IMG/VR virus record: IMGVR_UViG_3300033498_000048
Location: 224,001-288,000 of that record
Source of the DNA: a virus
Taxonomy: Duplodnaviria; Caudoviricetes
Reading direction: 5' to 3' (one strand)
Length of the DNA stretch: 64,000 nucleotides
Position 1 is the first letter of the stretch. Every line of letters begins with the position of its first letter. A program made the translations under genes and the position numbers. This document shows positions 1 through 29,794 of this stretch, one piece after another. The notes beneath the pieces were generated by a model. The model was not told where the DNA came from, made no database searches, and saw only the letters and a list, made by a program, of their open reading frames with translations.

Positions 1-504
1 GATAGTTTAATTAAAAAGGCAATTGATTTTGCAACATTAAAACATGAAGGGCAAACACGGAAGTTTTCAGGTTTACCGTATGTTACACATCCAATAAATG
101 TTAGTGCGATAATTAATAAGTATTGTAAAAAAGATGCTAATTATTCTAATTTGATGGTTGCGTCATTGCTCCACGATACGCTTGAAGACTGTGATGTTAG
201 TTACAAGGAATTAGTGATTGAGTTTGGTCCAACTATTGCAAATCTAGTACAAGAATTAACTAACGATGAAGCAGAAATGCAATTGGTTGGAAAGACTGAA
301 TATATGAAAACAAAGTTTGTAGGATTATCTGATAGTGCATTGACTTTGAAATTGGCTGATAGACTCGATAATGCACAAGATAATATGCCAGACAAAACTA
401 AAATTGCAACTCGTGATATTCTATATTATTTGTTGGACAATAGAACGTTAAATTTCACACAAAAACAATTATGTGATGCTATATTTGATGAAATTGGAAA
501 ATAA
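1..504 (+). CDS. HD-domain (p)ppGpp hydrolase-like protein (RelA/SpoT HD, small alarmone hydrolase/MESH1 type), 5'-partial
   Basis: Frame 1 is open from base 1: DSLIKKAIDFATLKHEGQTRKFSGLPYVTHP...LLHDTLED...LKLADRLDN, the SpoT/MESH1 HD motifs. It extends upstream of the listed ORF start at 151. Confidence 0.85.
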   Translation, partial: DSLIKKAIDFATLKHEGQTRKFSGLPYVTHPINVSAIINKYCKKDANYSNLMVASLLHDTLEDCDVSYKELVIEFGPTIANLVQELTNDEAEMQLVGKTEYMKTKFVGLSDSALTLKLADRLDNAQDNMPDKTKIATRDILYYLLDNRTLNFTQKQLCDAIFDEIGK

Positions 505-12808: not shown

Positions 12809-14353
12809 TTAAAATAAAATAACTAATTTAATATTCTCTTCCTCATTTATACTACGAGTTATCGCTTGAATATTACTTAAATATAATACATATCCACTAC
12901 CACGTTTAATTTTGTGTAATGGACTAATAACATCACTATAATCTGGATGACTTGGTCCAATATAATAATTTAAATATGCTGGAATACCATTTGAATCTAA
13001 CACATCGGTAATAATAGCAATTTGTCTATAATCACTTCCAACATCTGTTATTAAATGTGTATTGTTTTCCAATTTAACACTAATTAAAATGGCAGTTGCA
13101 TTTAACTCAGTAACCATATTATACCCATGACCGTTATATGGAGACATAATTGCCTTTGCAATACACCCAGATGTTCCAGCAATAATAAACACTTTAGCCC
13201 AAGTGTAATTTGTTCCATTAGAATTAACTGTTATAGCTGTTACAGTATTTGATTCTGATATTACTGGACTTGCTGTTGCTCCAGTTCCATCGCCTACAAT
13301 TAAAACAATCGCATCTGTATAGTTTGACCCAACCATATTTACATCTATGCTAGTAACTGTTCCTGTTGTTATATTTGCAGTTGCAGTTGCTCCAGTTCCC
13401 AATGCAGTAGTGTTTTTTATTATCGCAAATGTATCTGTAGTATATCCATTACCACTTTCTATAGCCAATACTTGTCTAATTTCATTTGTGTTTGTTTTTA
13501 TTACATTAACAACTACATTTGACCCAACTCCATCTATTGCAACTTCGGTATCTGCGAATGTTCCAATTTGTGTCAATATGCTGAATGTACTTATTCCATT
13601 AGTTTGTGCTGACTGTTGTATTGTCCATTGCTCACTACTATCATCTTGAATGAGGTATTTTACTGGAACATACCCTGTAGTTAAAAATGTTGCAGCATCT
13701 TGTGAGCTAATATTACCAAGATACTTCCAGCAATACCCGTCTGCTAACACTACAGGATTTATTCCTGTAGTTGTTGGTTTTGAAATACTAGGCGAATCGG
13801 TGTTATTATCAAGACATTTGTATATCTTTAACTCATCAGTAACAATGTAATACGGAGTTAAATACGGTGATTCAAAAGTGTCAACGTCTGGATTAAACTG
13901 ACTATACACAATACCTGAAGTCCAATCGTGTCTAATTGCCATCATTCTAACATCGTTACTTGTTATCTTTTTTAATGTAATGATATTGTTCATGGTTTTC
14001 AAATCACCTGAATTTGACATATCGGGTAAGGTTGGGGATGATTCATTAAACCAAGGCACTGGATTACCAATTGATAGGAACATATTTCCTTTGAATGTGT
14101 TATCTTTGATAACTTGTTCAATAAACATCCAATTCAAACTACCATCAGACATTGTTCCGCTAATATGTGTTGGAGTTATATTACCACTAATTCCAGCTGA
14201 CAATGCACAATATTTATTTGTTCCACTGATACAAACATTGCCTATTATATAATTTGTGTTTGATGTCCAAACATCTGGAGTTTTAGATTGTATTGTATTA
14301 ATAAAACTATTACAAGAAAAACCTCTAATATTTTGACTGAACTTTGCTGACAT
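12809..14353 (-). CDS. gp8: T4-like baseplate wedge subunit
   Basis: YYIVTDELKIYKCLDNN, S..KPT, DGYCWKYL, GHG, DYRQIAI motifs. Confidence 0.85.
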   Translation of the reverse strand: MSAKFSQNIRGFSCNSFINTIQSKTPDVWTSNTNYIIGNVCISGTNKYCALSAGISGNITPTHISGTMSDGSLNWMFIEQVIKDNTFKGNMFLSIGNPVPWFNESSPTLPDMSNSGDLKTMNNIITLKKITSNDVRMMAIRHDWTSGIVYSQFNPDVDTFESPYLTPYYIVTDELKIYKCLDNNTDSPSISKPTTTGINPVVLADGYCWKYLGNISSQDAATFLTTGYVPVKYLIQDDSSEQWTIQQSAQTNGISTFSILTQIGTFADTEVAIDGVGSNVVVNVIKTNTNEIRQVLAIESGNGYTTDTFAIIKNTTALGTGATATANITTGTVTSIDVNMVGSNYTDAIVLIVGDGTGATASPVISESNTVTAITVNSNGTNYTWAKVFIIAGTSGCIAKAIMSPYNGHGYNMVTELNATAILISVKLENNTHLITDVGSDYRQIAIITDVLDSNGIPAYLNYYIGPSHPDYSDVISPLHKIKRGSGYVLYLSNIQAITRSINEEENIKLVILF

Positions 14354-14363
14354 TTAAACCTCT

Positions 14364-15986
14364 TTAAACTTGTATTTTTATTATTTCTGGGTCAATGGTT
14401 TTATAGTTTTTAATTCCAATAGAATATATTGAATCAAGGCTAATGTTTCCAAAATCTGATATTGTATATTTGAAAGTACCATCGAATTTGAAATATTCAA
14501 TGTTATTTATATCAAATAATAAACTATCGTTAATGTAATGTTGATTCTTAATTATTTCCATTGTTGAATTAACATCAATCATATCAATAGTTGGTAATAT
14601 CCTATTGATTTGTTTTGATATTAGTAACTCAATATCTATACCATTCAATTGGATTTCATCATTAATAATATGAACTTTAAACTTATTGAATCCTACTGGA
14701 TGTAATAATTCATCCACAATTTTATCAATCCGTGAATTGGAAATCGTACTGTGAACTTCATATGAATATTGTTGATATTTGTTTCCATCAAATATAATCG
14801 AACCATATCCAATAAACTTATTATCATTGATGTGTGTTAATTCAGTTTCATATACGCAATTGTGTAATTGAATATCGAGTATTGCAGAGTTACCATTATC
14901 AGTTAAAATACTAACACCAATAGAGTTTGTATTGGAACCCCAGTATTGTTCTTTGATGTCGAAACTCTTTATGCCACCAATTTCATTTGAATTACCAGTT
15001 AATATAGCACCATATCCACCAGATTTGCTATTAACAATTATGTCTGGAAAACTAATATAATCATAGCCAGAACTCCATAGTTTAATATTTGTTATTGTAC
15101 CAGCTTCATTAACACTAACAACTTCAGAATAGAAGCTATGTCCACTAATAGTTGGAATTGTAGTGATACTATCTCCAATAGAATAGCCATATCCACCATT
15201 TACAATATTAACACCTGTAATACCACCAGTAACAACGGACTTAACAACTATGTGTCCATTTATTGTAAACCCATCTAATAAAACAACATCACCGATTTTA
15301 TATCCAATTCCAGGATGTTTTATTTTTACGATTGGATGGTTTAATATTGTTTCAGTAACTGTTTCAGTGTTGTTCCAAATGTCAATTGATTCGCCTGGAA
15401 TATAACTCTTATTAATATTATTGATTAATATTTTGTAATAACATTCACCTTTAATATTAATTGGTGATATTTTATTAATAGTAGTTTCTATTCCACTAGA
15501 TTTACCTGTTACGATTGTGTTTAATAATACGGTATTGTATATGTGTTGGAATGAAATTGATTGAATTGAGTTTCCAGTAGTTAAAATCCATTGGTCTTTA
15601 TAATAGGTTGAATCACTTAAATTAAATACGTTATCACGTTGGTATTGTATATTAACATCAACGTCATATAAAATTCTATACAAATATTTAAAACTACTTT
15701 CACTTCCACGACTTAAATAAAAATCACGCAATGTGTGGACTAATAATTTTCTATCAATTAATGTTTTATGATTCCAACCTAATTCACTTATTATCAAATC
15801 AACATATGGCTCAATATCGTTATTAATTTCTAAGTTATCAGAATATTGTAATAATAATTGTATGTAATTACCATCCAATTCAAGCCATTTGTAAAAATCG
15901 ACTATTAATTGGAACGCACTAGGATAACCATATCGAATAAAGTTTGGTATCTTTGATTTTAATATTGGTACAATTGTTTTTCTCAT
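14364..15986 (-). CDS. baseplate wedge initiator-like protein (gp7-like)
   Basis: FY.W.E, RDFYLSRGSESSFKYLYRILY, repeated G.GY..GD, LLHPVGF; lies between gp6 and gp8. Confidence 0.75.
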   Translation of the reverse strand: MRKTIVPILKSKIPNFIRYGYPSAFQLIVDFYKWLELDGNYIQLLLQYSDNLEINNDIEPYVDLIISELGWNHKTLIDRKLLVHTLRDFYLSRGSESSFKYLYRILYDVDVNIQYQRDNVFNLSDSTYYKDQWILTTGNSIQSISFQHIYNTVLLNTIVTGKSSGIETTINKISPINIKGECYYKILINNINKSYIPGESIDIWNNTETVTETILNHPIVKIKHPGIGYKIGDVVLLDGFTINGHIVVKSVVTGGITGVNIVNGGYGYSIGDSITTIPTISGHSFYSEVVSVNEAGTITNIKLWSSGYDYISFPDIIVNSKSGGYGAILTGNSNEIGGIKSFDIKEQYWGSNTNSIGVSILTDNGNSAILDIQLHNCVYETELTHINDNKFIGYGSIIFDGNKYQQYSYEVHSTISNSRIDKIVDELLHPVGFNKFKVHIINDEIQLNGIDIELLISKQINRILPTIDMIDVNSTMEIIKNQHYINDSLLFDINNIEYFKFDGTFKYTISDFGNISLDSIYSIGIKNYKTIDPEIIKIQV

Positions 15987-17779
15987 TAATATCGAACCTC
16001 AACTTTTACACTTGAAATGTTTACAATATTGTATAAGTATGTTTCAATATCAGGTAATTTTGGTTTAGCGTAAATAATGATTGTTCCATGTGTACCATAA
16101 TCTATTGAACTTGTAATGTTTTGTTCAATAATCAGTTTAATTAAACCTTTAACATAATCAATTTCACCTATTGGACTATTTACTATAACTGACTTTGTTA
16201 CACTATTAGAAATAAAAACACTACCACCAATATCGCTAGACAACACACAATCAATCCCACCATATTTAAATGTGGAACTTGTAATACTTTCATTACCATT
16301 TAATTGGTTTCCAAATGCTATTAAATATTGTGAAGAGCTTAAATATACAATATTAAATGATTTTGATATTGTTGATTCACTATAAATTCGTGATATGTAC
16401 AATTCACCATTTTTAATATAATCTAACAAATCAATATTGCTTAATCCACGTTCAAATTTACTTAAATGTGCTTTATTGTACACATTAACTTTATTTGAAA
16501 TTAGTTTTTGTATTTCGCCGTTTGATTTGTTTGTCATGGTTGGGTCAACTTTGACGTGTATTGATAATTGGACATCAATATATTCAGGGTCTATTAATTT
16601 AACATTAGTTCCTATTACACCATTTTGTGATAATAATTTGTTAATTTCTTGTTTCGCTGCTATGCCGATATTGTTGTTTAGTTTCGGCTTAATGCTAATG
16701 TATATTGAGCCATAATCTGGAGGAATGTTTTTTTCACCACCCCATATATTAATACTATCAATATCCCTATAAGTGTCTAATATTATGCTCTTATAATCAG
16801 ATTCAGTAACAACTCGTTTTTGTCGTTTGAAGTTTGCTGGAATATTAGTCCGCAAACTTTGAATTGACTCTGCATTGATTCCGCCACTTGATTTTTCTAT
16901 TATTGTTACTAAGAAGTTCAAATATGCACCTGTTGTACCAGCATCTAAAATAGATGGACGTTGATATGCCATTTTAGTACAACCGTTTCCATCTGGACCA
17001 GACGTGCTTAAATAAACCATTTCAATCATAGAATTATTTAATGGTTGATTACCAATAATGTTGTTTCCAAACATTATTTCATATAATCCCTCTATATTAG
17101 AGCTTAAATAAAACACTTTATCGTTTTTGTTAATATCAAAAACATCATTGACTAATATATATTCGTCCCTATTAGTTGAAGATGAGTCTGGATAAACATA
17201 TACTCGCAATGTTTCATAATCAATGTTAATATCATTAATTACAAATCTTTGGTTCTGAACATCGGATTTTACTATCATTTTCCATGATTTTAAACTTCCC
17301 TCATAAACGGTAAAGTGTGGAGATGTATAATAAACTTGTGTTCCATTAACTATTCTATTGTGACAAATAACATCTTCTAAATTGTAAAAAGTTCTTGAAT
17401 CATTTGACACGTTTATTCCAGATAACAAACTATATTTTGGAATAATTATGGTTTTGTTATCTGGTTCAGGTAAACTATCTAAATTTATTTGTAAACTAAC
17501 AACTGCTCTCGATGCACGTTTCCCCTTTGGTAAATACCCATTTAGTTTGGCTTTACTCATTAAGCTTTCGCGTTTTGTAGCTCCATCAATAAAGCTTTCC
17601 GTGTATGCCATTTTTATGTAATATCCCATATAATGTGCAATATATGCAAACAAATTCATTAATGAACTAATGCCACTAGCTTCAAAATTATAATCTGTGT
17701 AATAGCTTTTGGTTTTTAAATATGAAATAAAATTGGACTTTATCTCATCAAAATCTAATCCGTTTATTGGTAATTGCAT
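15986..17779 (-). CDS. gp6: T4-like baseplate wedge subunit
   Basis: LDFDEIKSNF..YL, DYNFEASG, ESFID.A..R.S, YEI.FG, R.VT..DY, WGGE...PPDYG..YISIKP. Confidence 0.93.
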   Translation of the reverse strand: MQLPINGLDFDEIKSNFISYLKTKSYYTDYNFEASGISSLMNLFAYIAHYMGYYIKMAYTESFIDGATKRESLMSKAKLNGYLPKGKRASRAVVSLQINLDSLPEPDNKTIIIPKYSLLSGINVSNDSRTFYNLEDVICHNRIVNGTQVYYTSPHFTVYEGSLKSWKMIVKSDVQNQRFVINDINIDYETLRVYVYPDSSSTNRDEYILVNDVFDINKNDKVFYLSSNIEGLYEIMFGNNIIGNQPLNNSMIEMVYLSTSGPDGNGCTKMAYQRPSILDAGTTGAYLNFLVTIIEKSSGGINAESIQSLRTNIPANFKRQKRVVTESDYKSIILDTYRDIDSINIWGGEKNIPPDYGSIYISIKPKLNNNIGIAAKQEINKLLSQNGVIGTNVKLIDPEYIDVQLSIHVKVDPTMTNKSNGEIQKLISNKVNVYNKAHLSKFERGLSNIDLLDYIKNGELYISRIYSESTISKSFNIVYLSSSQYLIAFGNQLNGNESITSSTFKYGGIDCVLSSDIGGSVFISNSVTKSVIVNSPIGEIDYVKGLIKLIIEQNITSSIDYGTHGTIIIYAKPKLPDIETYLYNIVNISSVKVEVRY

Positions 17780-18174
17780 TATCTAATCCTCTGAATCACA
17801 TAATTAAAAGTTTCTTGCCTATTCAAATTTAATATCTCATAAAATATTGTTATGTCATATGCGTTTCCATCTGGTAATAAAACAACCGTAACATCCATTA
17901 CCTTAATTCTAGGTTCAACTGCACCAATTAACCATTCAATTCTTGATTTTAATGTCGATGCAATTAATACAGATGGATTCTCAAATAACAATTCTTTGAT
18001 GTAATTCTTATATTTGCTATTGAATGGAACATCCCATATTTCCCATAAAAATATCGTGCGTAAGCTCCGTCTAATTGCTTCTTCATTTATTTTCGTTGTT
18101 ATGTCTCCAGTTAATGGGTGTATCGTCAATGATAAATCTACATCACGATATATTATTAAATCTGTGTTTTTCAT
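17779..18174 (-). CDS. gp25: baseplate wedge/sheath initiator
   Basis: YRDVDLS...HPLTGD, AIRRSL, EPRI; directly before gp6. Confidence 0.88.
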   Translation of the reverse strand: MKNTDLIIYRDVDLSLTIHPLTGDITTKINEEAIRRSLRTIFLWEIWDVPFNSKYKNYIKELLFENPSVLIASTLKSRIEWLIGAVEPRIKVMDVTVVLLPDGNAYDITIFYEILNLNRQETFNYVIQRIR

Positions 18175-19123: not shown

Positions 19124-19558
19124 TTAAGGGCAAACAGCTCTCAGGATTCTCATTTGACCCGCAAGAATCTTGGGCGCACCATCTCCATTGGAAACTGTTT
19201 TTGAAGTTGTAAGAAATGAAATATAATACAGATTTCCTGCTGTTGCTGCATCGTGTAACCCAGCCCCGACAATAGTTCCCCAATTTGCGGAAGGAACACC
19301 GAAAACCAATTCTTGTAGGTTGCTATATTCAAGGTTAGCTCCAGATGGACCCTGCCAACCATTTGATGCTAATATTTGAACCCTAGCATAGTTAGTTCCA
19401 ACAGTTGATACTTCAACTCCTCCAGTACCATCAAGTGACGGAGTTGAGGTGAATAGTGAAACCCACAACGATGTTGGAGGAGTGAATACGGGGGTATTCT
19501 TTAATAAGTAGTCCATAGACTTCTGATAATAAAAATTTGATGTGGTACTAGATGGCAT
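19124..19558 (-). CDS. phage virion structural protein (tail-associated)
   Basis: LWVSLFTS.P...GTGGVEVS...NYARV, F..PSANWGTI...GLHDAAT.GN; TATAAATA late promoter upstream. Confidence 0.7.
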   Translation of the reverse strand: MPSSTTSNFYYQKSMDYLLKNTPVFTPPTSLWVSLFTSTPSLDGTGGVEVSTVGTNYARVQILASNGWQGPSGANLEYSNLQELVFGVPSANWGTIVGAGLHDAATAGNLYYISFLTTSKTVSNGDGAPKILAGQMRILRAVCP

Positions 19559-20728: not shown

Positions 20729-22279
20729 TCATTTGATTCTTTCTATCAAATTGATATATTCGGTTGTTTTGTTACCAACTACTAATCCCTTTGTTCTATT
20801 GTATAACAACGGCATTACTGGTTCTAAACATTCAATAAGGAATAAAAATAATCTAAAACAATCCGAACATACTTCATGGCTATTATCACTCAAATTCCAA
20901 GGTTTGTTGTTATCTATGTAACAATTGATAATGGTAGCATTACCTAATATTATTTTTATTGCCTCAGAGTATTTTAATTCTGTGTATTTATCGAATATGA
21001 TTTGTCTATCATTAATTATATGTTCATAAAACACAGTATCAGATATTTCTGATAATTGACTACCGAACTTATTATTTAATAACGCAATTGTTCGACTACC
21101 AATATTAATTAACTTTCCAATTAATTCATTGTTTATTTTAACAACAAAATCATCATAAGTAAAGTCTATATCATTAATAGTATCATCCAATTTATAAGCA
21201 AAATAAAAACGTAATAATTCTGGGTCATACTTATCACCGAATTTCTTCCCTGTAATAAAAGAGCCTTTTGATTTACTCATTTTATTTTTATTAACGGTTA
21301 AAAATCCATGCGTTGCTAATTTTGTTGGTAATCTATAATTATTACCTTTTAGTATAGCTACCCAAAATAATGCGTGAAAGTAAATAATATCTTTACCTAT
21401 AAATTGGATCAACTCAGTCGACTCTTCTCTCCAATCATTTTTATAATCCAGTCCGATGCCATCAAGATATTCCTTATGGCTTGAAATATATGCTATAGGA
21501 GCGTCAAACCACACATAAAAACATTTATCCAAATCTGGAATATCAAATCCAAAATATGGTTTATCCCTAGTCAAGTCCCAATCAAGTAATGGCTCATCAA
21601 ACCATTCTAATAATTTATCTTTTAATTGATTACTAATCGCTTTACTATCAATAAACTCCAATAAGGTATCTCTGAACGATTCAATGTTTAAGAAACAATG
21701 ACTACTTGATTTGTTGATAATACTATGAGTGCTTTCTTTGACTACAATCGGATTAATCAAATCAATAGCAGAATAAACACTTTGGCAGTTGTCGCAACCA
21801 TCACCCCATTGTGAATGACTCCCACATTTTGGGCATATCCCCTTGACTTCTCTATCAGATAAAAACTTCTTATCATACTCATCAAATAATTGTTTTACTT
21901 CTTTTTCTATGATATATCCGTTTGCTTTTAACGTATTGAAAAAGTCAATAGTTAATTTTTCATTTTCTTTAGAATTTGTACTAGAGAAAATATCAAAATT
22001 TACACCAAATTTTTCTAAATCAAATAAATGTTCATTTCTAATCTTATCAATATAATCAACTTCTGATAAGTTTTCGTTTTGAGAGCTGATAGTAATTGCT
22101 GTTCCATGTGAATCGGACGCACATATAAAATCAACTTCATATCCATCTAATCGTTTAGCTCTAACAAAAATATCCGATTGGATATATTCCAGTAAATGAC
22201 CCAAATGAATATCACCATTTGCATAAGGCAATGCGCTGGTTACAACTATTTTATTTTTCATATCTCTTTGTCCAAACAT
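20729..22279 (-). CDS. metG: methionyl-tRNA synthetase (short monomeric form)
   Basis: ALPYANGDIHLGH (HIGH), DSHGT, CPKC...CDNC zinc knuckles, YVWFDAPIAY, FIGKDIIYFH, KMSKS, N.KPW anticodon Trp; start may be 22261. Confidence 0.97.
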   Translation of the reverse strand: MFGQRDMKNKIVVTSALPYANGDIHLGHLLEYIQSDIFVRAKRLDGYEVDFICASDSHGTAITISSQNENLSEVDYIDKIRNEHLFDLEKFGVNFDIFSSTNSKENEKLTIDFFNTLKANGYIIEKEVKQLFDEYDKKFLSDREVKGICPKCGSHSQWGDGCDNCQSVYSAIDLINPIVVKESTHSIINKSSSHCFLNIESFRDTLLEFIDSKAISNQLKDKLLEWFDEPLLDWDLTRDKPYFGFDIPDLDKCFYVWFDAPIAYISSHKEYLDGIGLDYKNDWREESTELIQFIGKDIIYFHALFWVAILKGNNYRLPTKLATHGFLTVNKNKMSKSKGSFITGKKFGDKYDPELLRFYFAYKLDDTINDIDFTYDDFVVKINNELIGKLINIGSRTIALLNNKFGSQLSEISDTVFYEHIINDRQIIFDKYTELKYSEAIKIILGNATIINCYIDNNKPWNLSDNSHEVCSDCFRLFLFLIECLEPVMPLLYNRTKGLVVGNKTTEYINLIERIK

Positions 22280-22329: not shown

Positions 22330-22758
22330 CTAAGACTTAATTAATTTATCAATTATATTGGTAAATTCTGATATTTTATTGTCACAGTCAGTTACCACAG
22401 CTTTTTTATAATCTTCCAATCTAGCCATTACTCCATTCAATAATTCAACATACTTTAACACACATTCTTCACGATTATCAAACACATAAACTGGATTACC
22501 AGTACGACTCTTATATCCAGTGTTATCGAATGGAGCGTGTATGGTTTTTGTCAGTTTGTCATTTTTTAATACAACAAAGTGACAAGAAGAATAATAAATA
22601 GTTTTTTTAGATAACGAATTATCTTGTATCAAAACTTGAACTGGTAAAACATTTCTTGCTGCATTTATGATACTTAAATCGGTTTTTCTATAATCACATA
22701 TCCAAACCTTTTCACCAGTCATTTTTCCACTGGTAATGTCTTCAATTTTAATTTGCAT
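22330..22758 (-). CDS. hypothetical protein
   Basis: 142 aa, VWICDYR...ARNVLP; in the minus-strand early gene run. Confidence 0.65.
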   Translation of the reverse strand: MQIKIEDITSGKMTGEKVWICDYRKTDLSIINAARNVLPVQVLIQDNSLSKKTIYYSSCHFVVLKNDKLTKTIHAPFDNTGYKSRTGNPVYVFDNREECVLKYVELLNGVMARLEDYKKAVVTDCDNKISEFTNIIDKLIKS

Positions 22759-24620: not shown

Positions 24621-24858
24621 AACATTTAAATCCTTTTGTGAGTCTGTAACAGCGTTGCCTATCTATTTTCTATGTGAAAAGTGTAAAGAATCAGGTATTC
24701 AGGAGTCTGATGAATTTGATATGGAGACTAAAACCTCTAGGCAAGAATATATTACAAAGGGACAAGATAAAATATTTTTAAAGAAAGTTTGTTATGAATG
24801 CAAATCTGAAAGTGGTGTAGACGAGAATTATTTAAAAGGGATACAATATAGTGGTTAA
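24607..24858 (+). CDS. zinc-ribbon protein with capsid-targeting-like N-terminus
   Basis: MTQYKTFKSFCES; CEKC...CYEC. Confidence 0.6.
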   Translation: MTQYKTFKSFCESVTALPIYFLCEKCKESGIQESDEFDMETKTSRQEYITKGQDKIFLKKVCYECKSESGVDENYLKGIQYSG

Positions 24859-25453
24859 TGTTAAAAACATTAGGGTAAAATCATTTAATGAATATTTAAT
24901 GGAAAACAGTCCAATAATTAGAACTGAGTTAGACAAAGAAATACATTCTAACACAGCAACAAGCCAATTAAATGATATTCCAATTCCATCAATGAAAGAT
25001 GCAAAAAGTGGAGATTATAAAAAAAGCAGAATTAAAATAAATGGACTAATCATTGATATTGAAAATCCGTATGGTTCAGTTAGAAAAGGCATTAGCTCAA
25101 ATGGCGAATCGTGGGAAATTACGTTATCAGATAATTATGGTGAAATTAAGGGGTATGATGCTGCTGATGGAGATTATTTAGATATTTTCATTCGTCCACA
25201 TATGACACAAAAACAAGCAGATAATTTAAATGTCATTTATGTGATAGACCAATTGGATCCAACTACACATGGATTTGATGAACATAAAGTCGTATTTGGG
25301 TATGAAACAATCGAGGAATCTAAACGTGCATATCTAGCCAATTATAAATCAAATTGGACTGGATTAGGATATATCACTCCATTAACTATGACGATGTTTA
25401 AATATTGGATTAAAAATGAAGACTTAACACAACCATTAGTTTGGGGTAAATAA
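24851..25453 (+). CDS. inorganic pyrophosphatase-like (polyvalent-protein InPase family) with capsid-targeting-like N-terminus
   Basis: KSFNEYLME; IDIENPYGSVRKG, YGEIKG..AADGDYLDIFI, VIDQ, FDEHKVVFGY, AYLANY, W.GLG.IT. Confidence 0.8.
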   Translation: MVNVKNIRVKSFNEYLMENSPIIRTELDKEIHSNTATSQLNDIPIPSMKDAKSGDYKKSRIKINGLIIDIENPYGSVRKGISSNGESWEITLSDNYGEIKGYDAADGDYLDIFIRPHMTQKQADNLNVIYVIDQLDPTTHGFDEHKVVFGYETIEESKRAYLANYKSNWTGLGYITPLTMTMFKYWIKNEDLTQPLVWGK

Positions 25454-26819: not shown

Positions 26820-28019
26820 TTAACTATTTAACTTTTGAAAAAATTGCAACAAATCTTCTTGTAATACTGAACATGGAATAGGATATTCAATATTATCAAG
26901 AAAATTGAGTTTAATATCTTGATTACAATCTGGTATAACTAAATCGAATAGTTTTCCAGCCAATACATAATCGAAATATTTAAATTCCAATGTATAATCA
27001 ATCCTACCTTTACGCAATAGGGCATCATCTAACTTAGTGTGGAAGTTGCTAGTCATTATAACTATAACATCTTCTTTACTATACAATCCGTCCAACACAT
27101 TCAATAGTGTAGATAAACTAACTGAATTGGTTAGACCAGCATTAGTTGAATTAATGTCCCGTTTTAATACACTATCACACACGGCATCAATGTCTTCTAA
27201 CAAAACAATTGAATCAGATGGAATATCAATAAACGCTGTAATAATTGACGAGTCAGTTAATGTTTTCAAATTGATTGAATAAATTGATTTTTTATATAAT
27301 GATGCTAATGCTAACACTAAACTCGTTTTACCAGTTCCAGGTGGACCAGTAAACAAATATCCCCTTTTATATAAAATTCCTCTATCTAAGTACCATTGTT
27401 TATTAATGTAGAAGTGTTCTATATCATCAAGCAACGATTGCTTATCATTATCTGGTAATACAATTGATTTAATATTGCGATAGTTCCTAGATGCAATTAT
27501 TCGCCATTCAGTAACATATGTGTGTATTGAAACTTGATTTCGACTTTTAGTTAAAACAGCAGCAACGAAATCATCAACTATATTTGGATCCCTACGAAAT
27601 AGAAAATACATTGTTATATCTTCAGGAGCTTTAAACATTCCAGTAGTTCGATTCGCCAATACTTTATAAAACAAAACTGGACGGTGTTTATACCAAAACC
27701 AATGTAACCCAGTTGAAAATGTAATATTACCAACATTTCCATGATAACCTGAAACATAATAATCATACAATTGAAGCCTTCTTGTATTAGATAGTAATCT
27801 ATTTTTTTCAATCCACAAACAAATATCATCAAACATATCGGTATTATTCCTAACCAACACTTCAACAGATAAAAAGTAAATTACCATTCGTTTTATTTGT
27901 GTTGGAATACCTTTTAACACATAAATCGCATATCCACATAGTGTAGCAACAACAGCACCAGAACTAAACATATTTGTTTGTACTTGATAGACTATCCATT
28001 CATAAACTTGTATCACCAT
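26820..28019 (-). CDS. BCS1-type AAA+ ATPase with N-terminal membrane anchor
   Basis: WY..RGI.YKRGYLF.GPPGTGKT (Walker A), LLEDID (Walker B), LSTLLNVLDG, MTSN, LLRKGRID. Confidence 0.9.
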   Translation of the reverse strand: MVIQVYEWIVYQVQTNMFSSGAVVATLCGYAIYVLKGIPTQIKRMVIYFLSVEVLVRNNTDMFDDICLWIEKNRLLSNTRRLQLYDYYVSGYHGNVGNITFSTGLHWFWYKHRPVLFYKVLANRTTGMFKAPEDITMYFLFRRDPNIVDDFVAAVLTKSRNQVSIHTYVTEWRIIASRNYRNIKSIVLPDNDKQSLLDDIEHFYINKQWYLDRGILYKRGYLFTGPPGTGKTSLVLALASLYKKSIYSINLKTLTDSSIITAFIDIPSDSIVLLEDIDAVCDSVLKRDINSTNAGLTNSVSLSTLLNVLDGLYSKEDVIVIMTSNFHTKLDDALLRKGRIDYTLEFKYFDYVLAGKLFDLVIPDCNQDIKLNFLDNIEYPIPCSVLQEDLLQFFQKLNS

Positions 28020-28573
28020 TAGTAATTCCGTTTCTTTATTTTAATAATATCAATATCATTACCACACGATACGATGTGATTTCCAGCTGCTAATATTGCC
28101 ATTTTTAATTTATCATTTGTATTCAATTGTGTTTCAATATTTGTTAATACAAATAAAGCTCCTTCGGCAGTGATACCTCCACTACCAATTGCAGTGTAGG
28201 GTGAATTTAGTTCACATACTGACCAATCATCTTGGATTTCAAATATCTTTGACCGATAACAAATTATATAGTTACCACAACGCCCTTTACTATCGTTTTC
28301 AGTATATTTGTGTAATTCCAAACACCTGCGAATTTCTGGAATTAAATCTTGTATCATATAATCAATTGGGTTGCCTCTTGTGTCTTTTGGTAGTTCTAAA
28401 TGGTGGCTAATAATTTGTGTTGCTCTTAATGAACCCATAGAGCCTATTAACATTTTTCCTATTTTAAATACCTTTGAATGAACTAAAGTTGACCCAACAT
28501 GACCATTTGATATTAGTCGGTCTCCACCTAAATATAAGTGTGTTTTGTCCATTAATGCTGCTATACACGTCAT
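28019..28573 (-). CDS. HslV/proteasome-beta-like Ntn-hydrolase
   Basis: MTCIAA (N-terminal Thr), GGDR, SKVFK, IGSGG. Confidence 0.8.
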   Translation of the reverse strand: MTCIAALMDKTHLYLGGDRLISNGHVGSTLVHSKVFKIGKMLIGSMGSLRATQIISHHLELPKDTRGNPIDYMIQDLIPEIRRCLELHKYTENDSKGRCGNYIICYRSKIFEIQDDWSVCELNSPYTAIGSGGITAEGALFVLTNIETQLNTNDKLKMAILAAGNHIVSCGNDIDIIKIKKRNY

Positions 28574-28660: not shown

Positions 28661-29794
28661 TTACTTAATTAGTCCACGAATTAAAGATTCAAACTTACGA
28701 ATTTCTAGCTTTCTCAAATAAGCTGGAATATCTGTAATAGCACCCTTTTGATATGCAAAAACTATTCCAGATAAGTTTTGATTATCTTTCATTTTTAAGC
28801 CAAGTTCTTTTCCAGTTAATGTTTTAGTGTATTCAATAAGCGTGTCTAGTTTCTGTTGTAATCGCTTGTACGCTGTTTTTATGGTTGAGTGTAGCACTGT
28901 ATGCTCTTTGTACTTATCGAGCGATAGGAACGATTTGTGTGAGTTTGTACGCACTATTTCACACATTCTACGGAAATTGTCTTTATCTATTTGTGATTTT
29001 CGTTTGATGTATTCCTCATTTGATATGAATTTAGAAGTCCGCAACAGATTAATATTGTCGTATTGTGGACTCTTTATTTTCAACCGATTAAAATTAGAAT
29101 CACACGCAACATAACCTTCCATCTTAATTGGGTCAACCTCATTTAATTCCAATAAAATATCATTCAAGGTTGATTTTTTACCAGTTGCACATTCCCATGA
29201 AATACACAATTCACGTTTAGCACGTTCAATTGACACCTCTTTAAAAGTTTTAAGATTGCGAACACCAATAAGGGTAATGTTAGGTTCTGATACTTTAACC
29301 AAAAAGTCTTCTGATGGACGTTCCATTTCAAACATATAACAATGGTCTGTAAACTTTGGTAATTCGTATTTTTTCAACTTCCAAACTTTCCAGAAATAAT
29401 CATTCATTGTAATATCTAAACCCTTAATTTGTCCAGACGCATCAGGCATACCTTTAGATGCTACATTCCATTTTCCATCATACCAATACAATGTCATCAA
29501 TGAACCATCTAACTTTTTCCAATATGTACAATCATCAAAATCGAAAGTTTGTTTTCCCATTGGATTATAATCACTAAACCTAGTAAACGGAAATGATACA
29601 ACCTTCATTGTATTAGTATCAATTATTAATCCCCTACAATTATTAGTTATGTCATTCTTTGGTGTTTCCAATTGGTCATACATCAATTGTACTAAATTTG
29701 GATATAATATATGTCTACGCATTTTTAATGAATATGTAGCAACTAATGTTTCCAATGAATTTTTAATAATGTAATCAATAACGTTTAACATCAT
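28661..29794 (-). CDS. rnlA: RNA ligase 1 (T4 Rnl1-like)
   Basis: CRGLII, FPFTRF, KLDGSL (motif I), YMFEM, EGYV, RLKIKS. Confidence 0.85.
   Translation of the reverse strand: MMLNVIDYIIKNSLETLVATYSLKMRRHILYPNLVQLMYDQLETPKNDITNNCRGLIIDTNTMKVVSFPFTRFSDYNPMGKQTFDFDDCTYWKKLDGSLMTLYWYDGKWNVASKGMPDASGQIKGLDITMNDYFWKVWKLKKYELPKFTDHCYMFEMERPSEDFLVKVSEPNITLIGVRNLKTFKEVSIERAKRELCISWECATGKKSTLNDILLELNEVDPIKMEGYVACDSNFNRLKIKSPQYDNINLLRTSKFISNEEYIKRKSQIDKDNFRRMCEIVRTNSHKSFLSLDKYKEHTVLHSTIKTAYKRLQQKLDTLIEYTKTLTGKELGLKMKDNQNLSGIVFAYQKGAITDIPAYLRKLEIRKFESLIRGLIK

Follow-up and report, generated by a model that had tools for sequence, protein, structure and literature searches.

An intact, short methionyl-tRNA synthetase of the E. 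coli type encoded beside the baseplate genes of a large phage

The window (the whole stretch of DNA that was analysed, 64,000 nucleotides) belongs to a record of 305,782 bp with 31% GC and direct terminal repeats, which is rated complete. It contains a gene for a methionyl-tRNA synthetase (MetRS), metG, on the same strand as T4-like baseplate genes. E. coli K-12 MetG served as the reference for mapping residues of the phage enzyme. The features of the locus are as follows.

1-504 (+), with its start 24 nt ahead of the window: protein with an HD_4 domain (Pfam match)
12809..18174 (-): T4-like baseplate genes (gp8-, gp6- and gp25-like), downstream of metG
19124-19558 (-): Gp80-type fibre-associated protein, between the baseplate genes and metG
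20729..22261 (-): metG, methionyl-tRNA synthetase of 510 aa, a monomeric core that lacks the Trbp111 domain
20729..20790 (-): shortened C-terminal fold-back peptide; the R533 equivalent is R514, with the stop two residues on
20897..20899 (-): W461 (KPW), the C34-stacking tryptophan
20933..20935 (-): T449 in place of D449
21092..21106 (-): anticodon helix, N392..R396, equivalent to E. coli N391 and R395
21269..21283 (-): KMSKS loop
21785..21835 (-): single zinc site, C149, C152, C162 and C165, equivalent to E. coli C145/148/158/161
22196..22207 (-): HIGH motif (HLGH), after the conserved ALPYAN strand of the Met pocket
22330..22758 (-): hypothetical ORF of 142 aa, upstream, stopping 50 nt before the first ATG of metG
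24851-25453 (+): InPase (PF18823) protein, E=5e-42
26820-28019 (-): BCS1-like AAA ATPase, upstream of metG
28019-28573 (-): HslV-family peptidase, following the BCS1-like gene
28661..29794 (-): Rnl1-like RNA ligase, in phage context, a member of the tRNA-maintenance kit

The metG open reading frame spans 516 codons (20729-22279, minus strand) with no internal stop. The first ATG (22279) would give 516 residues; the recorded gene call starts at the second (22261) and gives 510 residues. The second ATG is preceded by a weak SD-like GAG and is the likelier start. A promoter scan returned 42 sites against 30 ± 5 in shuffled sequence, none of them convincing immediately upstream of metG, and the 45 T4-late-type TATAAATA sites found genome-wide are uninformative. 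The protein matches Pfam tRNA-synt_1g (E=6e-125) and passes the curated family model TIGR00398 metG (437 bits, cut-off 336); against PRK00133, a model of 676 positions that includes the C-domain missing here, it falls just below (562 against 587). Among solved structures, the enzymes of A. baumannii and E. coli match it best. The frame is an intact MetRS of the E. coli type with two knuckles and one zinc site; the unbroken frame, the family scores and the residues agree with the earlier note, which had read an enzyme with intact catalytic and anticodon motifs here.

The Met pocket is identical to that of E. coli at all 12 positions (A12, L13, P14, Y15, D52, W253, A256, P257, Y260, I297, H301 and W305), and the phage MetRS retains D52, R233, N391, R395, N452, D456, P460-W461 and R533 (E. 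coli numbering). The HLGH, KMSKS, N..L.N..SR and KPW motifs listed in the earlier note are all present, N391/R395 and P460-W461 included. Its two zinc knuckles need rewording: CPKC and CDNC are both there, but their four cysteines make up one zinc site. Two zinc sites are ruled out, as the protein has only the Cys 145/148/158/161 set and no second one. E. coli MetRS likewise holds one zinc, and two-zinc MetRS enzymes use eight ligands (PMC8216282). The AlphaFold model of the phage protein (pLDDT 90.5) superimposes on E. coli MetRS with a TM score of 0.94 and has the Rossmann fold. Identity to the E. coli enzyme is ~40% across the entire protein, so that the likeness first seen at the N-terminus is correct as to type but extends over the whole length. 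PF01588, the C-terminal dimerisation (Trbp111) domain, was found neither in the protein nor in the whole genome, as had been read from the sequence; this supports assignment to the monomer type of MetRS rather than to the dimeric Trbp111 type.

The gene is embedded in phage DNA. Small phage ORFs also lie upstream of metG, and the 142-aa ORF among its neighbours has no Pfam or PHROG match. Codon usage (CAI 0.681 against a genome mean of 0.683) and GC3 (0.223 against 0.224) are those of the genome, and the nearest protein in a search over billions of sequences is at most 46% identical. A separate Logan assembly, possibly of the same sample, is 100% identical over 7.5 kb. Chimeras and recent host captures do occur in viral collections (L031, L049 and L053), but an assembly artefact or fresh capture is extremely unlikely here: GC and codon usage equal those of the phage, the distance to homologues is large, the second assembly agrees, and host neighbours such as mrp/apbC are missing beside metG. 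Composition, codon usage and distance to homologues reject it, in accord with the low chance given to a chimeric contig at first reading. metG is an old, fully ameliorated and truly phage-borne gene. The phage has a T4-like capsid protein with 62% identity to that of Acidovorax phage ACP17 and 59% to those of Stenotrophomonas phages. A beta- or gammaproteobacterial host is suggested by this likeness, by an RdgC gene and by a CCA enzyme whose closest model is PRK10885. The HD_4 protein at the edge of the window may be a Mesh1/SpoT-like alarmone hydrolase, going by its Pfam match.

Among columns that are invariant in 80 GTDB MetRSs the phage enzyme keeps 87 of 95, and among variable columns 17 of 124, which fits long purifying selection on the gene; 19 near-invariant positions are changed. 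No close relatives suitable for dN/dS or presence/absence comparison were found. The C-terminus is the most unusual part. Between W461 and R533 the chain spans 53 residues, where the 80 GTDB enzymes have 69-76, and this span is the shortest among the apparently complete enzymes of the set, tied with one other. The chain ends two residues past the R533 equivalent, in a segment 19 residues shorter whose last ten residues have a mean pLDDT of 53. The C-terminus falls ~30 residues short of that of the E. coli M547 monomer. Other natural MetRSs (P0163, on a 695-kb contig, P0133 and P0175) also stop one or two residues after R533. A chain of 547 residues gives E. coli MetRS full activity, its tRNA charging depends on the 528-533 stretch, and truncations near residue 534 lose stability. 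By these limits the phage MetRS, with the 528-533 stretch kept, stands at the lower size limit, and its activity may be reduced.

A formerly useful enzyme that C-terminal erosion has left unstable or inactive, though not yet a pseudogene, would account for this short span, for the 19 changed positions and for the long branch (1.58 substitutions per site), and a broken copy does exist in a group of ~184-kb IMG/VR phages. That copy (L042:5627-7323) is without the first ~120 codons, HIGH motif included, and the upstream gene abuts the remnant. We consider such decay very improbable here, since a 1.5-kb frame stays open in DNA of 31% GC, all catalytic residues are kept at ~55% divergence, and P0163, P0133 and P0175 end just as early. 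The broken copy fits an optional gene, and any benefit from metG is accordingly conditional.

The second peculiarity lies in the anticodon-binding region. Position 449 is aspartate in 117 of the 119 nearest homologues and in 78 of 80 GTDB enzymes; in the phage MetRS it is threonine. D449 and D456 of E. coli MetRS reportedly act as negative determinants against non-cognate anticodons. Position 449 varies widely in distant enzymes, and D456 is kept in the phage protein. Neither the short C-terminus nor D449T by itself shows altered function; the enzyme is a natural test of the minimal length of an E. coli-type MetRS and of the role of D449.

In a C20 mixture tree the phage MetRS sits on its long branch inside the group that holds all sampled Gamma- and Betaproteobacteria. 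It joins P0175 with support 96/84, to be read with a long-branch warning; the two have in common the short C-terminus and a one-residue insertion that occurs in four of 211 sequences. The sister status of P0175 is lost after recoding, and with method and taxon set the sister shifts between P0175, P0125 and P0129 as long branches meet. With so unstable a placement no donor can be named, and we reject any such naming. The ancestor was likely of proteobacterial type, so that of the proteobacterial donor or host hinted at in the earlier note the (E. coli) type stands and the donor does not. Monophyly with the MetRSs of the ~184-kb phages is borderline rejected (p-AU 0.043), by which their metG is probably a separate capture. 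'HGTAI' as a shared phage signature was rejected as well, that alanine occurring in 43 of 211 enzymes. P0175 itself, a 519-aa MetRS, lies on a contig of 23% GC (L135:1-15289), perhaps from a phage or another mobile element, among genes for a HipA-like kinase, a phage-type DHH phosphoesterase, SPFH and vWA-PP2C proteins; the closeness of a HipA kinase to a class I synthetase there is curious.

ARAGORN finds 17 tRNAs in a single cluster (G000:17.7-29.4 kb of the phage genome), ~85 kb from metG when measured around the circular genome. Two of them have the anticodon CAU, one initiator-like, which answers the search for tRNA-Met genes proposed at the outset. The gene at G000:22447-22519 has A11:U24, G2-C3-G4 and G29-G30, is without encoded CCA, and keeps two of the three 29-31/39-41 G:C pairs, the third being replaced by U31:G39, which the annotated initiator of T5 has too. 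A11:U24 is found in 4430 of 4438 bacterial initiator tRNAs and in no elongators (PMC5143459), and on these features the tRNA is classed as initiator-like. It is atypical in U31:G39 and in an A1:U72 pair where a 1x72 mismatch is expected, a pair seen in 0 of 4438 bacterial initiators (PMC5143459). The same tRNA (L004:7447-7522, minus strand) has A for G19 and U for C56, an apparently compensated tertiary pair that suggests a functional molecule. The second gene (G000:26125-26197) combines C11:G24 with the same anticodon stem, CGA/UCG, as E. coli ileX; Ile2 is favoured ~3:1 for it using the data of PMC5143459, and AUA makes up one third of the phage Ile codons. The genome further encodes a peptide deformylase, a CCA enzyme, Thg1, YqeY, TROVE, two RNA ligases and the HD_4 protein. 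Fmt and TilS were not found in the phage genome, and searches with PF00587 and PF00579, self-tblastn and a reading of ORF starts revealed no second synthetase. Inside the tRNA cluster (G000:23714-25913, minus strand) lie two larger ORFs, one with a radical-SAM-like CxxxCxxC motif.

The unusual tRNA raises the question of whether the phage MetRS is tuned to it, that is to A1:U72 and U31:G39, or has been relaxed by D449T to mis-methionylate other tRNAs or unmodified tRNA-Ile2(CAU). A dedicated pair was first suggested by two ~184-kb metG phages that have a similar initiator-like tRNA in the tRNA cluster adjoining metG. The rarity of A1:U72 in bacterial initiators, T449 in place of the aspartate of near homologues, the missing TilS and the misacylation of two tRNAs in vitro by E. 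coli MetRS (PMC3488245) all point the same way. A1:U72 initiator-like tRNAs, however, occur in at least 114 viral stretches (with U31:G39 in 24 of the 80 read), and MetRS is found in none of 35 records with such a tRNA (0 of 21 near-complete), so that host enzymes suffice for them. G002, conversely, has metG and no CAU tRNA in the loci scanned, and position 449 is variable at a distance while D456 is kept. An orthogonal enzyme-tRNA pair is disfavoured by the 35 viral records that have the tRNA type and no MetRS, and private or relaxed charging is on the whole rather improbable. The frequency of A1:U72 initiator-like tRNA(CAU) in viral contigs (L277-L356) may be a viral signature against tRNA-fMet nucleases; some of these rows are giant-virus records, in which A1:U72 is expected.

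We favour, as probable though by no means certain, that the trimmed and probably active monomeric enzyme is an accessory source of Met- and fMet-tRNA in infection. Its activity, substrate range and benefit we infer. Met-AMP would form in the Rossmann site between HIGH and KMSKS, the C34-A35-U36 anticodon would be read through W461, N391 and R395, and any CAU tRNA-Met could be charged, the initiator-like tRNA of the phage as well as host tRNA-fMet and tRNA-Met. The initiator would be formylated by host Fmt, to which the step is assigned as the phage has no fmt, and the phage deformylase may then strip the formyl group. Given the genes present and absent, the route from Met to Met-tRNA, host formylation and phage deformylation would be coherent. 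Initiation and Met flux might so be kept high while host translation factors decay or come under attack, with MetRS as one item of a wider tRNA kit. Al-Shayeb 2020 (PMC7162821) likewise proposes a general translation role for synthetases that huge phages encode. The initiator-like tRNA(CAU) and the deformylase fit the role in initiation that the earlier note had put forward. Our literature search, incomplete in coverage, found no published functional test of a phage MetRS; as this phage is uncultured, only heterologous tests are possible.

The earlier note had the enzyme sustain initiation when host MetRS or tRNA-Met is attacked. More specific defence against the host can be imagined along this line, in which the enzyme would stand in for a host MetRS that a HipA-type kinase has inactivated, or would quickly recharge a phage tRNA-fMet resistant to VapC- or AtaT-type toxins. 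Initiator tRNA is cleaved by VapC and acetylated by AtaT, while HipA and HipT phosphorylate synthetases (PMC7180214); the kinase targets named in passages of this review are GltX and TrpS, not MetRS. tRNase evasion has been proposed for phage tRNAs (PMC10264068), U31:G39 lies beside the anticodon loop, and RNA ligases, TROVE and the HD_4 protein co-occur with metG. Yet the KMSKS serines, the expected target of HipA-type kinases, are unchanged in the phage MetRS, a cleaved or acetylated tRNA is not repairable by a synthetase, and the initiator-like tRNAs with U31:G39 in T5, phi-pp2 and cr116 are found in genomes with no metG match. Counter-defence of this kind is unlikely. A more composite reading is a long shot: a near-minimal, phage-adapted MetRS (510 aa, D449T), perhaps grouped with P0175 in a small lineage of mobile elements, would have relaxed tRNA discrimination, and the single A1:U72 tRNA-Met would serve both initiation and elongation and so bypass defence against Met-tRNA-fMet or MetRS.

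The phage MetRS adds, probably independently, to the large-phage captures of metG, and MetRS is suggested to be a recurrent phage synthetase; initiator-tRNA supply may therefore be a pressure point in infection. The rarity of such genes in phages was overstated in the earlier note, as metG occurs in several independent phage lineages. MetRS loci lie on viral contigs of 175-543 kb, with T4 gp23 in three of four tested; the four MetRS loci tested score best on the other bacterial MetRS model, PRK12267, and are 19-26% identical to the phage MetRS. A full-length betaproteobacterial-type metG lies among large-phage-like genes at L031:5719-7773, a recent capture or a chimera, and the metG of Microcystis phage MaAM05 (L003, MW495066), among purB, mtaB, ycfH, gabD and mtnC, resembles host DNA. 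RNAs of ~120 nt that resemble tRNAs and match RF00005, with no ARAGORN call, stand just after tRNA-Pro at G002:165075-165194 and G004:92424-92547, and by position in G001 and G003 too.

The ~184-kb phages (L034, L035, L040 and L042) likewise carry a divergent E. coli-type MetRS of short form, ~554 aa, and two have the similar A1:U72 initiator-like tRNA. Their C-terminus is longer than here, and their metG lies beside a tRNA cluster, whereas the present gene adjoins baseplate genes ~85 kb from its cluster; G001, of that group, has no T4 gp23 match. SSU5-like phage-plasmids (Escherichia phage Cyrano, PhiR41_1) also encode an E. coli-type MetRS, but it is full-length (677 aa), near-identical to that of K-12 and next to the host neighbour mrp on a temperate ~108-kb element. 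The huge phages are similarly large and encode tRNAs, synthetase, PDF and CCA enzyme, with metG annotated in the supplement and up to 15 synthetases per genome (Al-Shayeb 2020, PMC7162821); here only MetRS was found. With the E. coli core (M547/M551; PDB 1QQT, 1F4L, 3H9C) and A. baumannii MetRS (5URB) the phage enzyme has in common the fold, the one-zinc knuckles, the Met pocket, KMSKS, N391/R395/W461 and R533. It is ~40% identical to this core, naturally without the Trbp111 domain, ~19 residues shorter between W461 and R533 with its end at ~535, and carries the substitutions D449T, D384E, Y357F and P306V. A phage-borne metG is not new; what is peculiar here is the very short C-terminus together with D449T.
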